DNA of 64,000 bases from Candidatus Nealsonbacteria bacterium (GTDB taxonomy: Bacteria > Patescibacteriota > Minisyncoccia > Minisyncoccales > MHMH01). The stretch lies in contig JBDRKR010000020.1 in NCBI GenBank assembly GCA_043813805.1, positions 3,130 through 67,129 on the forward strand. Direction: 5' to 3'. This document shows, one piece after another, positions 36,001 to 51,000 of this stretch (its first letter is position 1; each line of letters opens with the position of its first letter). Position numbers: made by a program.

Positions 36001-39000
36001 GATAAGCGAAATTATGGAGCGCTTGCCCATATTAAAATGGCAGTGTTCATCAGTTTTAATATCGGTGGAAAAATATGTTAAATAAAAAGAAAATTTTCAT
36101 TACCGGCGGCGCCGGTTTTATAGGGACTAACTTGGTCAAAAGACTGGGCGGGCAAAACCAGATCACCATCTATGATAAAAAAAATGGCGATGATCTGCTT
36201 GATTTTGCCAAGCTGAAAAGATTAATAAAGAATCACGATTTTGTTTTTCATTTGGCCGCAAATCCCGATATTGCCAAGAGCGAAAAAGATCCTCGACTTG
36301 ATTTAGACCAGGGTATTTTGACTACCTTTAATGTTTTGGAGGCGATGAGATGCTGCTCTATAAAAAATATCGCTTACACCTCAGGCAGCGGTGTTTATGG
36401 CGACCAGGGATCAAAATATACTCCCGAGAGTTTCGGACCATTGCTGCCGTCTTCAATGTACGGCGCCAGCAAGCTGGCATCCGAGGGTTTGATTTCCTCC
36501 TTTTGCCATCTTTATGATATGAAAAGCTGGATTTTCCGGCCGGCTAACATTGTGGGCAAATTCCAAACCCACGGCGTCGGCTACGATTTTGTCAGAAAAT
36601 TAAACAAGAATCCCAGAGAATTGGTCATTTTGGGCGACGGCAGCCAAAGCAAATCCTATCTTTATATCGACGATTTGATCGATGCCGTAATTTTGGCGAT
36701 TGAAAAATCAAACGATAAGGTTAATTTATTTAATTTAGCGTCAGACAGCTTTGTTGATGTTAAAACCATCGCTGAAATAACTATTGAGGAAATGGGTTTA
36801 AAAAATGTCGCGCTTCATTTTGGCTCAAGTCCCAGGGGCTGGAAAGGCGATGTGCCCAAGGTCAGAATAGACGCTAAGAAAATAAAGAGTCTGGGCTGGA
36901 AAGCAAAATTAAACTCCAAAGAAGCCATCAGAAAATCAATCCAAGACCTGTTAGTAAATAAATAAAAAGCCGGACTAAAAGAAGTCCGGCTATGGTGGGC
37001 AAATCTTTGATTTGTCCATTTTTGATCATTTCAATCGCCTCGGAAATACTAATCTCAACAACTTCAATTTCTTTAGCTTCTTGGGACAATCTTCCTCTTT
37101 TTATTTTTTGAAGATCTTGAGCTAAAAATAAGTGGCAGGCACAGCCAGTAAAACGAGAGGTATCCTGGCTGAAATTAGATATTTCTGACAAATTATCAGT
37201 CTTATAACCGGTTTCCTCCAACAATTCCCTTTTGCCAGCGGCCGCGGCGGTTTCTTGGGTTTCTATCAAACCAGCCGGCAATTCAATTGAAACTTCACCA
37301 AACCCAGGACGATAATGTTTGATTAAAACTATTTTTTTCTCATTTGTGATAGCGGCGATATGGACAGAAGGCGTTTTTTCTATCAAATAATAATCTTTGA
37401 TAACCATACCATCGGGCAGACGGAAATCTTTCTTAAAGAGTTTGAAAAACGGCGTTCCTATGATTAGTTCGGAAATCAACTCTTGCCATTTTTTATTTAT
37501 CACTAACTCAATTCCTCCCCATTTTTAATTTACTCAGCATAATTTAACACTTTACCACACCCGCGTCAAGGTGCTGCCCAGTCACAAGGTATTGTTAAAA
37601 AACAAGTGTTATATTAAGGTAAAACTATGATTATCGTTAGAGTGCCATTAAGAATACCGATCGGCGGGGGAGGAACCGACCTGCCTTCTTATTATTCTCA
37701 ATTCGGCGGAGAGTGGATTTCGGCCGCAATTGATAAATATATTTACATCGTCGTCAATAAAAGGTTCGACGATTCTTTAAGAATAAGTTATTCCAAAACC
37801 GAGGAAGTGGGAACCCCCGCAGAGGTTCAGCATCCGATCGTCAGAGAGGCTCTCAAGCTGTTGGGGATAAAAGGAGGCATAGAGATTGTTTCTGTTGCCG
37901 ATGTCCCCTCTAATACCGGTCTGGGAACGTCGGGAAGCTTTACGATCGCTTTGCTTACCGCCCTCCACGCATTTTTGGGCAATGATATCCCGCCTCGGAA
38001 ACAAATCGCCGAACAGGCCTGCCACATCGCCATGAATCTGCTTCAGGAGCCCTCGGGCAAGCAAGATGAATATATCGCGGCTTTTGGGGGCATTGCCTCT
38101 TTTTCAGCCGATAAAAATGGCGAGGTGTCAGTAACGCCGCTCTACCCCCAATTTTTTTCACCCGAAGTCGTCAGAAACCTGGAGAACGATCTTCTGATGT
38201 TTTATACCGGAATCAGAAGGAAATCCGGTCCGGTCTTGAAAACCCAAGGGCAAGCTGTCGAAAATCTTCACCGGGTTAAAGAAATCGGCAGAGAAATTAA
38301 AGAGGCCTTAATCAGCGGTAAATTATCCCAATTTGGCGCATTATTAGACCTTCATTGGCAGGAGAAAATAAAAAGAACCGGAACTTCTGATCCCCAAATT
38401 AATCGCTGGTATGAAATTGCCAAAGAAAACGGAGCTCTCGGCGGAAAATTAATGGGAGCGGGCGGAGGCGGTTTTTTCTTATTCTATTGTGAAGGCCAGA
38501 AAGATGGATTGAGAAAAGCCATGGCAGAGCAGGGCCTGAAAGAAACCCCTTTTCGTTTTGATTTTGAGGGAGTAAAAGTTATTGCCAATTTTATTTGAAT
38601 GTTGTATTGTAATATATTATGGATGAAGTTATAAAAAACTATTTCTCCGAGCTGGAGAGAATCATCAAAGAACTTGATAAAGAGAAAATCAACGAAATTG
38701 TTGAGCTTCTTTTTACGGCCTGGAAAAATGAACGGATTGTTTATATTATGGGTTGCGGGGGCTCGGCTTCAACGGCCACTCATTTTACCTGCGATCTGGC
38801 CAAATCCACGATTGTTCCCGGTAAAAAGGGGTTAAAAACCATATCATTGGTTGATAATATTCCCCTGGTTTCTGCCTGGACCAATGACGGCGGCTGGGGC
38901 AGCGTGTTTAAGGGGCAATTACAAAATTGGCTGGGTCAGGGAGATGTTTTGGTCGGTTTTTCGGTTCATGGAGGATCAGGAGCAGGTGAAGCGGGCCCAT

Positions 39001-48000: not shown

Positions 48001-51000
48001 GGAAATCAAGTTCTTTTCTAAAGAAGATCTGAAGAATGTCCCTGTCGCCTTCGGGTGCGACAAAGATCTGGAAGATGCTTTTTGGCCATCAACTAAATAG
48101 CAGCTGTTTATTGTTAAGAAAAGGACAGGCACAAAGTCTGTCCTTTTTCATTTAAGCTGTAACACCTTTTGACACCTCTTGACACTCTGGTGTGAGGGTT
48201 CTATGATAAAAATATGGCAGAAATTAATCCCAAACAAATTTATACGACCGAAGAGGCCAGAAGCTTTCTGAAAATCAGCGAAAGCACGATTAAGCGGCTT
48301 TTAAAAAAAGGCACTCTCCGGGCCTATAAGGTGGGAGGTCAATACCGCATTTGGGGCGCGGAAATTTTACGATTGGTTTCGCCGGAAATTGAAGATAAGG
48401 TTTATCGCGTTTATAAAAAAATCAAAAATAGAGCCAAAAAAGCCATTGCCAAGTGGTAAACATGGAAAATATTATTAAGTCACTATTTGATAAGAATATT
48501 GAGCTTCATCAGGCGGTTAAAGATGAGTTGGCTCCCAAAATCGCCGAAGCCGCCAATTTAATCATTGATGCTTATACTCAAGGCAGAAAGCTTTTGCTTT
48601 GCGGGAATGGGGGCTCCGCCGCCGATTCTCAACATATTGCCGCAGAACTCGTGGGACGCTTCAAAAAAGAACGCAGGGGATTGCCGGCCGTGGCTCTGAC
48701 CACCGACACTTCTATCATGACGGCCATCGCCAACGATTATTGGTACGACGCATTATTTGCCCGCCAGGTTGAGGCCTTGGGCGACAAAGACGATATTTTA
48801 ATCGTGCTTTCCACCAGCGGTAATTCAACCAACGTCATCAGGGCTGTTGAGGCCGCCAAGTTCAAGGGTTTAAAAACGATCGGATTTTCAGGAGGCGACG
48901 GCGGCCAGTTGAAAGATTTGGTTGATGTCTCATTGATCGTGCCGTCTCAAGAAAGCGATCGGGTCCAGGAAATCCATATTTTAATGGCTCATATTATTTG
49001 CCAGTTGATTGATTCCAAAATTTCTTAAAGCATATGGAAAATTATTCAGATCTTCTTAAAAAATTTAAAAACTCCCAAGTCCTGGTCGTAGGCGATTTAA
49101 TGATGGACGAATATTTATGGGGTAATGTTGATCGGATTTCGCCTGAAGCTCCTATCCCCGTCTTGGATGTCAAAAAAATTGATTTTCGGCCGGGTGGAGC
49201 GGCCAATGCCGCCTACAATGTTAAGTCGCTGGGCGATAAAGTATTTTTAGTGGGGGTCGTGGGCGTTGATGAAAAAGGCGCGATTTTAAAAAAGCTTTTG
49301 GAAGAAAAAGGAATTAACGCTGACGGAATCGTTTTTGACAATCAAAGAAAAACCACTGTTAAAGCAAGGGTGGTCGCCAAAAATCAGCAAATTGTCAGAA
49401 TTGACATTGAAGATAAAACACCGATCGTTCCGGAGATTGAGGAAAAAATCCTTACTTTTATCAGGGAACGCGTTAAAGATTTGGGAGCCATTATTATTTC
49501 CGATTACGGAAAAGGAGTAATCACCCCAACTTTGTGCCAGCAAATTATCGCCCTGGCCAAAGAAAATAATGTTTTATCTCTGGTTGACCCCAAAGGAACC
49601 GATATTCTTAAATATCGGGGATGCACCATTATCGCCCCCAACAAAAAAGAGTTGAGCGTGGCTTTGAATGTTCCTTTGGAGCAATTAGCCCAGGAGGGCA
49701 GGTTTTTACAGGCCGGTAAAATGATGATGGCTCATATCATGTCGGATAACGTTTTGGTTAAATGCGGAGACGAGGGCATGACCTTGTTTGAAAAGAACGG
49801 CAATATCTTTCATTTTCCCGCGCTTAATCAAAAGGCGATTGATGTTTCGGGCGCCGGCGATACGGCGATCGGCGTTTTTGCTTTAGCTTTAGCGAGCGGC
49901 ATTCAAAAACAGGAAGCCGTAGTTTTGGCGAGCCACGCCTGTTCCATCAAGGTGAGCAAGGTGGGAACTTCCGTTGTTGTGCCCGAAGAATTAGAGGTAA
50001 GTCTGGCAAATTATGTCTATCCAACCCAAAATTAAAACTCAAAAAGAAATTATCGGGATCTGCCGAAGTTTCAAGAAACGCAAAAAAACAGTCGTTACCT
50101 GTAACGGCAGTTTTGATATCTTGCACGCGGGTCATTTCCAGCGTTTGAAAGAGGCTAAGGCGCAAGGAGACGTTTTGATTGTTTGTTTAAACAGCGATCA
50201 ATCTGTCCGTGCTTATAAGGGACCGGGCCGGCCGATTAATAAACAGGCCGTGCGGGTCCAAAATTTGGTTGTTTTGCCATATATTGATTACCTGGTCGTT
50301 TTTAACGAGTTGAATCCCAAAAATATTTTAAACAAGATTAAGCCCGATATCCATTGCGTGGGCAGGGATTGGGGTAAAAACTGCGTTGAAAGAGACGTGG
50401 TTGAAAAAAACGGAGGAAAAATTTATGTGGCTAAATGGCTCAAGGGTTTTTCCACATCTGATATCATAAAAACTCCGAAGATTGGGGCGATTTTTTTAGA
50501 CAGAGATGGCGTCATTAATATCAACGAGCCGGAGTATGTCCATCGGATTGAAGATTTTAAGTTTGTTCCCCGGGCCTTACCCGCCCTAAGAAGACTTTCG
50601 CAGACTGACTATAAAATTATTATTGCGACCAATCAGTCGGGAATTGGCCGGGAATATTATACGGAAAAAGATTTGGAGGTTCTCCATCAATGGATGTTGC
50701 GACGGTTTAAAAAAGAGGGGATTAGAATTGATAAAATCTATTATTGTCCTCATGCGCCTGGCCAAAAGTGCAATTGCCGGAAACCGAAAACCGGAATGAT
50801 TGAGCAGGCGGTCAAGGATTTTGGCATTAATCTCAGTAAAAGCTGGATTATCGGCGATTCTGAAAGAGATATTCAAATGGGTAAAGAAGTAAATCTTAAG
50901 ACTATTTTATTGGGAGGCGAGGTAAAAAATCTTGCTGAAGCCGTAAAAATCATTCTTCAATGAAAGTTTTATTTATTACCAAAGATTTTATCATTGAGCC

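Follow-up and report, generated by a model that had tools for sequence, protein, structure and literature searches.

The DNA analyzed here (the window, meaning the whole stretch throughout) is a 64,000-nt section of contig JBDRKR010000020.1 (positions 3,130 to 67,129 of the forward strand; GenBank assembly GCA_043813805.1) from a Candidatus Nealsonbacteria bacterium, a member of the Patescibacteria, or Candidate Phyla Radiation (CPR). The window is almost wholly occupied by a glycan island of at least 64 kb, and glycan biosynthesis was encoded in each part that was scanned. Two groups of sugar-activation genes lie within it, set 1 (37627-41220) and set 2 (44616-50963), placed 3.4 kb apart. A first, sequence-only reading had assigned these to a GDP-α-heptose and an ADP-β-heptose route, respectively, and the list of open reading frames (ORFs) and the domain searches placed every ORF named in it on the plus strand with the domains it had reported.

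Set 1 opens with a GHMP sugar-phosphate 1-kinase (37627..38598, plus strand; PF00288 and PF08544). Its best NCBIfam model was HddA (NF049969), at 130 bits versus a cut-off of 600, and among solved structures it scored 117 bits with WcbL, 116 with the Bacteroides thetaiotaomicron kinase 3k85, and 105 with the Campylobacter jejuni kinase 4n3o, compared with 63 to 66 for the fucokinase FKP and approximately 45 for mevalonate kinase. R13, D22, the Ser-rich loop, Q162, and D163 of WcbL, which are essential by mutagenesis (PMC4691232), all have counterparts in the set-1 kinase.

The next gene (38619..39944, plus strand) encodes a fusion of a SIS domain (38619-39227, approximately residues 1 to 203; PF13580) with a transaldolase (TAL; 39234-39944, approximately residues 206 to 441; PF00923, E value of 1.5e−39). 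The SIS domain had been recognized in the sequence-only reading, but the fused transaldolase had been missed. The TAL half scored 311.9 bits with TIGR02134 (cut-off, 281.95), retained the Asp, TTNP, Glu, Schiff-base Lys, and SvFaGR Phe residues, and was 47 to 50% identical to stand-alone "Staph-type" transaldolases of Staphylococcus and Lactobacillus. The SIS half reached 80.6 bits with TIGR00441 (cut-off, 209.45). Numbered as in Burkholderia pseudomallei GmhA, as are all SIS residues below, it kept His64 and His183 and carried Asp in place of Glu68, Glu in place of Gln175, and a 9-residue insertion in the phosphate loop.

The third gene (39946..41220, plus strand) fuses a nucleotidyltransferase (NTase; residues 1 to 240; PF00483, E value of 1.8e−38) with a GmhB-type HAD-IIIA phosphatase (residues 243 to 424). 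Among NCBIfam models the NTase scored 164.9 bits with man1P_GTase_Rv and 108.5 with HddC (NF049965; cut-off, 300), and among PDB entries 130 bits with 8x7s, 94 to 98 with GMPP, and 60 with Yersinia HddC. Its best matches span UDP-, GDP-, and dTDP-forming enzymes, and reading the nucleotide from the sequence was rejected as an approach; the NTase is nearer to ManC/GMPP-type enzymes than to HddC, so that GDP as its nucleotide is no more than probable. The GmhB domain had intact DRDGV and CPH..CxC motifs and scored 151.8 bits with NF006506 (cut-off, 178) and 92.7 bits with PDB entry 3l8h.

Relatives of the set-1 kinase were sought by a kinase-alignment scan of reference genomes, with one genome per species. 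At least 593 were confirmed in many bacterial and archaeal phyla, and the loci of the best 80 of these, approximately 50% identical and all from outside the CPR, were compared (loci carry L numbers below). Bacteria among the 80 belonged to the Verrucomicrobiota, Acidobacteriota, Planctomycetota, Chloroflexota, Actinomycetota, Firmicutes, and Proteobacteria, and archaea to the Woesearchaeota, Nitrososphaerales, Thermoplasmatota, and Methanospirillum. The usual arrangement was a tight codirectional operon of kinase, NTase, SIS, GmhB, and TAL genes, preceded in most by a gene for a short-chain dehydrogenase/reductase (SDR). A gene of the TAL_FSA family was present in 49 of the 58 loci having kinase, NTase, SIS, and GmhB (84%), as a close homologue in 41 and a more distant one in 8; all three distant homologues that were checked against Pfam matched PF00923. 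Independent fusions have joined TAL with SIS, in both orders, and with GmhB, and there was a SIS-GmhB fusion in L005 and an NTase-GmhB fusion in Rhizobium plasmids. On the CPR contig L169, SIS and TAL were separate neighboring genes, which indicates that the fusion in the window is a lineage-specific joining of adjacent genes. Both cassettes, set 1 and set 2, recurred in many Patescibacteria contigs at 55 to 85% identity, and the pattern is not due to chance.

In a neighbor-joining tree rooted on fucokinase, the cassette kinases formed a single clade, 47 to 55% identical to the window kinase. WcbL and the B. thetaiotaomicron and C. jejuni HddA proteins formed another clade, 49 to 53% identical among themselves and 28 to 31% identical to the window kinase, which lies outside this HddA/WcbL clade, in a sister clade to it. 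A grouping with hexose kinases had been named as grounds for abandoning the heptose assignment, and none was seen: with 105 to 117 bits to the heptokinases against 63 to 66 bits to fucokinase, the set-1 kinase did not group with fucokinase, galactokinase, or mevalonate kinase.

The isomerases that accompany these kinases also depart from the characterized type. Canonical GmhA has Asp61, Gln63, His64, the catalytic Glu68, an STSG(K/N/R) phosphate loop, Gln175, Glu176, and His183, whereas the cassette SIS proteins have Asn, His, or Thr at position 61, Ser or Thr at 63, Asp at 68, an SV(G/H)GG loop with 4 to 9 extra residues, Glu at 175, and Ala, Gly, or Ser at 176, with His64 and His183 in common. 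This altered signature was shared by each cassette SIS and phylum examined. Where a canonical GmhA stands beside a cassette SIS (in the window, L005, L037, and L046), the former keeps the canonical pattern.

Control loci were obtained by searching annotated plasmids with WcbL and came from Vibrio alfacsensis, Lichenihabitans, and Pseudodesulfovibrio (L170 to L172). In these HddA-clade loci the kinase was followed by a canonical GmhA (L170 and L172) and an NTase, the GmhA being approximately 49% identical to that of set 2 in the window, and no match to TAL was obtained in L170 to L172 at an E value of ≤1e−3. A literature search for transaldolase in heptose clusters found nothing relevant. As judged from these sequence comparisons, the set-1 cassette is widespread, uncharacterized, and misannotated, and it consistently differs from the classical GDP-heptose route.

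Two genes upstream of the set-1 kinase are associated with the cassette. An SDR of the NAD-dependent epimerase/dehydratase family (36075..36965, plus strand; PF01370, E value of 5.6e−39) is a conserved partner of this kinase, since a homologue is encoded beside it in most of the 80 loci compared (116 to 276 bits) and another is present in the sister genome locus L001 (429 bits by tblastn). Between it and the kinase, and divergently oriented to set 1, lies a NUDIX hydrolase resembling pyrophosphatases of NDP-sugars and ADP compounds (36928..37503, minus strand; PF00293). Its matches were weak (NudE, 69.5 bits; NudK, 40.9 bits), and its position is kept in L001 (230 bits).

Several variants of the cassette were observed. 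A third pairing of kinase and SIS was found in L169 (12406-13961) and L085 (1262-1888 and 9001-9981); its GHMP kinase was 41% identical to that of the window and grouped with the Rhizobium plasmid kinase, and its SIS carried Asp68 and Glu175 without the phosphate-loop insertion. This suggests a family of coevolving kinase-isomerase pairs for different higher sugars. In the archaeal cassettes L025, L027, L038, L056, and L057 (Woesearchaeota, Nitrososphaerales, and Thermoplasmatota), the SIS scored 204 to 226 bits with the window SIS and shared its SVHGG loop and long insertion, compared with approximately 60 to 110 bits for bacterial cassette SIS proteins, which suggests that CPR bacteria and archaea have exchanged this part of the pathway or hold it by common ancestry. 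A full TAL-linked cassette, together with SDR, Gfo/Idh/MocA, and NDP-sugar dehydrogenase genes, was present on plasmid 3 of Lawsonia intracellularis (L084; NC_008014.1, 14573-22924), where the RefSeq names are generic ("galactokinase," "SIS domain-containing protein," "transaldolase"). Lawsonia is a cultivable animal pathogen and could serve as an experimental system for the cassette.

In L001 a purine phosphoribosyltransferase gene (12264-12836) is inserted between SIS-TAL and NTase-GmhB. It scored 161 bits with the adenine phosphoribosyltransferase subfamily model (cut-off, 146) and 156 bits with the archaeal hypoxanthine/guanine model (cut-off, 200); as it was not assignable to adenine or guanine, it was rejected as a clue to the nucleotide used by the NTase, and its position hints at a coupling of purine nucleotide salvage to the set-1 pathway. 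A TAL gene of Streptomyces sp. 3211 (p3211-1) was considered as an octose-cluster gene and rejected, as it stands alone among transposases beside an oxidase and a hexitol phosphatase.

Set 2 begins with a GT9-family glycosyltransferase, a putative heptosyltransferase (44616..45767, plus strand; PF01075, 83.8 bits versus a cut-off of 22), which fell just under the cut-off of the heptosyltransferase II model TIGR02195 (128.7 versus 134.6 bits) and is kept upstream of set 2 elsewhere (481 bits in L002/L003 and 397 bits in L167). It is followed by a short, 264-amino-acid HldD-like ADP-heptose 6-epimerase (45764..46558, plus strand) that scored 211.6 bits with TIGR02197 (cut-off, 274.6), the shortfall being due to a deletion of approximately 35 residues after the first beta-alpha-beta unit. 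The top four PDB matches of this SDR were all HldD (136, 99, 97, and 80 bits), with GalE next at 77 bits. Conserved segments include GGRGFVG, YASSAAIYG, YANSK, and LRFFNVYGPHE..KGKMASMV, the catalytic S/Y/K/K residues are intact, and alignment to Helicobacter pylori HldD keeps YASSA.YG, Y..SK, and LR.FNVYGP.E..K.ASMV. The gene is absent from the set-2 module of the sister genome.

Downstream of these genes is the remainder of the module. A canonical GmhA, the sedoheptulose-7-phosphate (S7P) isomerase (48453..49028, plus strand; TIGR00441, 224.6 bits versus a cut-off of 209.45), carries D61, Q63, H64, and E68, the STSG loop, and Q175, E176, and H183; its start had been put at 48462 and was found at 48453. 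Next come HldA, a PfkB-family heptose-7-phosphate 1-kinase (49034..50035, plus strand; TIGR02198, 366.2 bits versus 345), and a fusion of HldC (residues 1 to 155) with GmhB (residues 159 to 300) (50013..50963, plus strand). For the HldC half, TIGR02199 was the best nucleotidyltransferase model (145.5 bits versus 181.5), and HAGH occupies residues 38 to 41. The GmhB half scored 190.8 bits with NF006506 (cut-off, 178), with DRDGV and CPH..CxC present. An (F/L)xxGRSTT motif has been tied by Tang and coworkers to the additional synthesis of CDP- and UDP-heptose (PMC11573728); the corresponding WLKGFSTS of the window HldC is without the Arg of this STTR5 promiscuity motif, and ADP is therefore the expected nucleotide.

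Two conserved unannotated ORFs of 261 and 182 amino acids lie between the GT9 and gmhA genes (46750..48100, plus strand) and had no Pfam match at an E value of ≤1e−3; the larger gave a weak HD-domain match (E value, 0.02). ORFs of similar size (281 and 181 amino acids) occupy the same position in L002. A small DNA-binding protein of the excisionase-type HTH_17 family (48214..48459, plus strand; PF12728, E value of 7.3e−12) overlaps the start of gmhA, and its gene also lies directly upstream of gmhA in L167 (8203-8451) and L168, with a copy in L001 at 3254-3502. The best promoter-like site of the region (11 of 12 matches; 48179-48207) is placed just before this HTH_17-gmhA unit, in a scan that was near chance overall (42 sites found versus 30.5 ± 6.3 expected); a terminator scan was at chance (24 found versus 22.3 expected). 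The HTH_17 protein is thus a candidate for a regulator dedicated to the ADP-heptose genes.

The order GT9, two unknown ORFs, (HTH_17), GmhA, HldA, and HldC-GmhB, followed by genes for a B12-binding radical SAM enzyme, a methyltransferase, and a GT4, recurred in the CPR contigs L002, L003, and L167, and the HldC-GmhB fusion has hundreds of homologues in Patescibacteria. A metagenome scan with the HldC-GmhB alignment was unfit for counting co-occurrence, because the pattern amounted to the generic GmhB motif and most of its 80 loci were ordinary gmhB genes. Synthesis of ADP-heptose in Paceibacteria has been noted previously (PMC9166423). With GmhA, HldA, and GmhB above their NCBIfam equivalog cut-offs and the GT9 and HldD-like genes adjacent, domain and motif matches identify set 2 as an ADP-heptose (β-route) module, as had been proposed for it: an ordinary pathway in an unusual host and domain arrangement. 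In this module, canonical GmhA would isomerize S7P, HldA would phosphorylate C1 in the β configuration, the GmhB half of HldC-GmhB would remove the 7-phosphate, and the HldC half would add AMP; the short HldD-like SDR would then epimerize C6, and GT9 would transfer the heptose. CPR cells have no outer membrane, so GT9 probably transfers to protein or to a lipid-linked glycan and not to lipopolysaccharide (LPS).

The two sets are not products of a recent duplication, an origin that was rejected on the identities of SIS to GmhA (29%) and of the two GmhB domains (39%), with the kinases and the NTases nonhomologous. Nor could the anomer preference of the GmhB domains be read from sequence: the "beta" and "alpha" models gave 151.8 and 90.8 bits, respectively, for set-1 GmhB and 190.8 and 158.8 bits for set-2 GmhB, the "beta" score being the higher for both domains, and the preference has no established residue-level determinant. 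We know of no accepted sequence determinant of this preference. A contrast between the two domains had been put forward as a check on the anomeric assignment, and it is uninformative for this reason and because in C. jejuni a single GmhB serves the GDP-α route although it is encoded in the ADP-β cluster (PMC10680097).

Between set 1 and the GT9 gene are two further genes. The first (41217..43259, plus strand) overlaps the end of NTase-GmhB by 4 nt and encodes a 680-amino-acid membrane protein with approximately 14 hydrophobic segments and no Pfam or NCBIfam match. Only 17 homologues were found among 5.8 billion proteins, the named ones being from Patescibacteria. Its AF2 model (pLDDT of 84.2; pTM of 0.88) was compared with the PDB by Foldseek, and all 11 matches at an E value of ≤1e−3 were GT-C glycosyltransferases (DPY19, AglB, AftA, STT3, PglB, and ArnT). 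On the predicted structure, the protein belongs to a GT-C family unrecognized by sequence models, and this fold together with the gene overlap points to a glycosyltransferase using a lipid-linked donor and coupled to set 1. The second (43204..44619, plus strand) encodes a B12-binding radical SAM enzyme (PF04055 and PF02310), for which all NCBIfam matches were under their cut-offs.

The reading that we favor, with a probability of roughly 0.55, is that the window holds two independent, nonhomologous modules for nucleotide-activated higher sugars: the ADP-heptose module of set 2 and, in set 1, a transaldolase-initiated pathway of the type encoded by the lmb genes for lincomycin. Domain identities, intact catalytic residues, the separation of clades, conservation of the operon, and the fusions are directly supported by the data; from these we infer the substrates, the number of carbons, the nucleotide, the acceptor, and the joining of both sugars in one glycan. 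To our knowledge, the lincosamide GDP-octose route is the only characterized NDP-sugar pathway that has this enzyme set and starts from a dedicated transaldolase. LmbR is said, after work by Sasaki et al. in 2012, to condense a C3 unit with ribose-5-phosphate to octulose-8-phosphate. LmbR is the transaldolase of the lincomycin pathway, LmbN is the C8 isomerase, LmbP the C8 kinase, LmbK the C8 phosphatase, and LmbO the C8 guanylyltransferase, after which the epimerase LmbM and the oxidoreductases LmbL and LmbZ act (PMC4351081, including Table 2, and PMC12945683). The same five families (TAL_FSA, SIS, GHMP kinase, HAD-IIIA phosphatase, and NTP_transferase), plus an associated SDR, make up set 1 (PMC4351081).

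By this analogy, the TAL half of set 1 would transfer a C3 unit from fructose-6-phosphate to an aldose phosphate, yielding a ketose phosphate that the divergent SIS half would convert to an aldose. The GHMP kinase would make the α-1-phosphate, the GmhB half of NTase-GmhB would remove the terminal phosphate, and the NTase half would form the NDP-sugar, probably GDP linked. The SDR, the NUDIX hydrolase, and the coupled GT-C would act downstream. For the acceptor of the TAL half, ribose-5-phosphate, giving an octose product as in lincomycin synthesis, has about an even chance. Erythrose-4-phosphate, with TAL only supplying S7P, the product being D-glycero-D-manno-heptose, is conceivable at lower odds, and another acceptor leading to another higher sugar is improbable.

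Both routes may plausibly contribute to one glycan. The genes from 37627 to 46558 form an unbroken chain of overlaps or gaps of ≤20 nt that joins set 1, the GT-C, the B12-binding radical SAM enzyme, GT9, and HldD, with a second tight run of genes starting at 46750, and in two genomes both modules share a contig and an island. The alternative is that the modules serve different glycans (for example, on protein and in a wall polymer) and are neighbors only because CPR bacteria gather their glycan genes in one island, and to this we would give somewhat less than even odds. The arrangement elsewhere favors it: in the sister genome GCA_043956695.1 both modules are on one 539-kb contig approximately 20 kb apart, with GT9 staying with set 2; within 10 kb, set 2 is unaccompanied by set 1 in L167 and set 1 by set 2 in L169; and of the 80 cassette loci from outside the CPR, L005 alone has hldE and gmhA nearby. 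The position of the strongest promoter-like site, just upstream of the HTH-gmhA unit, also fits separate deployment. Colocation of the modules is thus recurrent but not obligatory.

For set 1 itself, the proposal of the sequence-only reading was a GDP-heptose route, in which the fused TAL would only boost S7P from fructose-6-phosphate and erythrose-4-phosphate and two anomerically different heptose donors would be made side by side. The α-type logic of that proposal holds, given the GHMP kinase, GmhB, and NTP_transferase domains, but the kinase clade, the isomerase signature, the transaldolase, and the NTase scores do not fit the GDP-heptose assignment. We regard this route as doubtful, if still of real weight, and the points in its favor are those that weigh against an lmb-type pathway. 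The likeness to the lincosamide route was established at the level of enzyme-family content and operon logic. The TAL belongs to a family (TIGR02134) of what are presumed to be ordinary, S7P-making enzymes of the pentose phosphate pathway, to judge from its closeness to the Staphylococcus and Lactobacillus proteins, and may merely supply S7P, which could help a minimal pentose phosphate pathway and make the cassette self-sufficient on horizontal transfer. HddA was the best-matching family of the kinase in both NCBIfam and the PDB, the essential WcbL residues are kept, and hddA is the JGI name for the kinase family. Nine of the 58 cassettes had no TAL within their flanks, nor any visible substitute, an absence more readily accounted for if the ketose phosphate is a common metabolite. 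The island contains a genuine Gmd (502 bits versus a cut-off of 415), and the set-1 NTase was the only sugar-1-phosphate nucleotidyltransferase of the NTP_transferase family found in the window; enzymes of the Gmd type act on GDP-heptose in Yersinia and Campylobacter as 4,6-dehydratases. Finally, we know of no aldo-octose in bacterial surface glycans.

Against the GDP-heptose route, the kinase stands apart from all three solved heptokinases and scored far below the HddA cut-off, and the cassette isomerase is without the catalytic Glu and the STSG loop in each phylum examined, while HddA-clade kinases go with canonical GmhA. A canonical GmhA and a divergent SIS encoded together, as in the window, L005, L037, and L046, would be redundant if both acted on S7P. 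The TAL is kept even in Acidobacteriota and Verrucomicrobiota with large genomes and has been fused repeatedly to pathway enzymes. The C. jejuni GDP-heptose pathway consists of four enzymes starting from S7P with no transaldolase (PMC10680097), and, as in the control loci, transaldolase is part of no characterized GDP-heptose locus.

That set 1 activates a hexose, with the NTase as a mannose-1-phosphate guanylyltransferase feeding Gmd, the GHMP protein as an anomeric hexose kinase, and the SIS, TAL, and HAD domains unrelated or housekeeping, is very improbable: the NTase does score best on mannose-1-phosphate guanylyltransferase models and structures (164.9 versus 108.5 bits for HddC, and 94 to 98 for GMPP versus 60 for Yersinia HddC), and the window contains Gmd and yielded no second candidate guanylyltransferase, but the NTase forms one protein with a GmhB-type bisphosphate phosphatase, encoded directly downstream of the SIS-TAL gene, the five activities co-occur as a single operon across phyla, the kinase scores far better with heptokinases than with fucokinase or galactokinase, and a bisphosphate kinase/phosphatase pair has no role in the established pathway of GDP-mannose synthesis. 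Grouping of the NTase with hexose-1-phosphate enzymes had been put forward as evidence against a higher sugar, and by the letter of that comparison it does score higher with mannose-1-phosphate enzymes; its fusion to GmhB and its operon context nonetheless argue against a hexose role.

The remainder of the island encodes glycosyltransferases of the GT2, GT4, GT9, and GT-C/PMT_2 types, Gmd, several SDRs and methyltransferases, and a carbamoyltransferase. Fifteen radical SAM genes were counted in the 64-kb window, 12 of them B12 binding and 3 other, one with a SPASM domain (16157-22112, 22929-25380 on the minus strand, 30148-35364, 43204-44619, 50960-52312, 54088-57194, 59587-60573, and 62048-63583). 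For a CPR genome this density is extraordinary, and it suggests that the glycan is extensively C-methylated or deoxygenated; none of the 15 reached an NCBIfam equivalog cut-off. Cobalamin synthesis is not expected of CPR bacteria. No tRNA genes and no compositional break marking the region were seen in the window.

A resemblance to lipid-linked sugar transfer of the ArnC/ArnT type was observed at 5635-7408, 11202-12840, and 13746-14126, where there are a GT2 of the polyprenyl-phosphate glycosyltransferase type, two PMT_2 GT-C proteins, and two small SMR/EamA-like membrane proteins that are possibly flippase subunits; the arrangement recurs in the sister genome (L002). The Gmd gene (TIGR01472) is followed directly by a gene for an NDP-hexose C-methyltransferase (Methyltransf_13 and Methyltransf_14), both within 7432-9772. 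A minus-strand block at 25392-29805 encodes a carbamoyltransferase (PF02543 and PF16861), a methyltransferase, a small SxtJ-like protein (a weak match, E value of 5e−4, under the Pfam cut-off), and a GDSL-type esterase/acyltransferase, which suggests O-carbamoylation or O-acylation of the glycan. The region 57238-62105 encodes an SDR-HAD fusion, a phosphoglycerate-dehydrogenase-like 2-hydroxyacid dehydrogenase, the SPASM radical SAM enzyme, a FabG-like SDR, and a PseF/KdsB-like cytidylyltransferase (84.9 bits versus a cut-off of 205.7). It may constitute a third, CMP-linked sugar-activation pathway in the island, and a similar group of CTP_transf_3 and 2-Hacid_dh genes recurs in L001 and L167.

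Naming of the kinase as hddA by KEGG- or JGI-style pipelines would lead to "GDP-heptose biosynthesis" being reported for hundreds of genomes in which the cassette differs from the characterized route by a dedicated transaldolase, a retooled isomerase active site, and a separate kinase clade. We tentatively propose that the cassette is a general pathway for an NDP-octose or another sugar of more than seven carbons in the surface glycans of hundreds of bacterial and archaeal lineages, including CPR and DPANN members, and that the lincomycin pathway is a specialized offshoot of it. Were this so, aldo-octoses would be widespread and overlooked in prokaryotic glycans, and in this organism an octose would be combined with ADP-heptose and extensively modified by the 15 radical SAM enzymes of the island. 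If the product is an octose, sugars of a class known mainly from lincosamides would prove to be common constituents of prokaryotic surfaces, and the lincosamide sugar pathway would have been traced to its evolutionary source. CPR bacteria live attached to host cells, with genomes well under 1 Mb, and that at least 64 kb is given over to a single glycan island suggests a central place for surface glycans in their biology. The vertebrate innate immune system has ADP-heptose among its ligands, and production of this sugar by organisms without LPS would widen its possible sources.

Four known systems invite comparison. The lincosamide pathway includes a Gfo/Idh/MocA oxidoreductase and an SDR, both of which are also found in the cassette loci of Lawsonia (L084) and L054. 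It is encoded in an antibiotic cluster, whereas set 1 lies in a surface-glycan island among glycosyltransferases, and set 1 fuses SIS to TAL and NTase to phosphatase, whereas the LmbN isomerase is fused to a carrier-protein domain (PMC4351081). With the classical GDP-heptose route, set 1 shares the order of steps after the ketose phosphate and a kinase whose closest solved structures, at 105 to 117 bits, are heptokinases; it differs in the separate clade of that kinase, a noncanonical isomerase, the added transaldolase, and an NTase nearer to ManC/GMPP than to HddC. C. jejuni, with GDP-heptose in its capsule and ADP-heptose in its lipooligosaccharide (PMC10680097), likewise has α-type and β-type activation pathways in one genome, but its routes occupy separate loci, serve separate glycans, and draw on the same GmhA product, whereas here one gene array encodes clearly different isomerases. 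Finally, all activities of the LPS-type ADP-heptose route have predicted counterparts in set 2, with the HldD-like and GT9 genes adjacent. Instead of an HldA-HldC (HldE) fusion, set 2 has HldA alone and HldC-GmhB, an arrangement that is not among the three HENase types described previously (PMC11573728). Further differences are the internally truncated HldD, the small HTH_17 gene that invariably lies directly upstream, and a CPR host presumed to be without an outer membrane and LPS.

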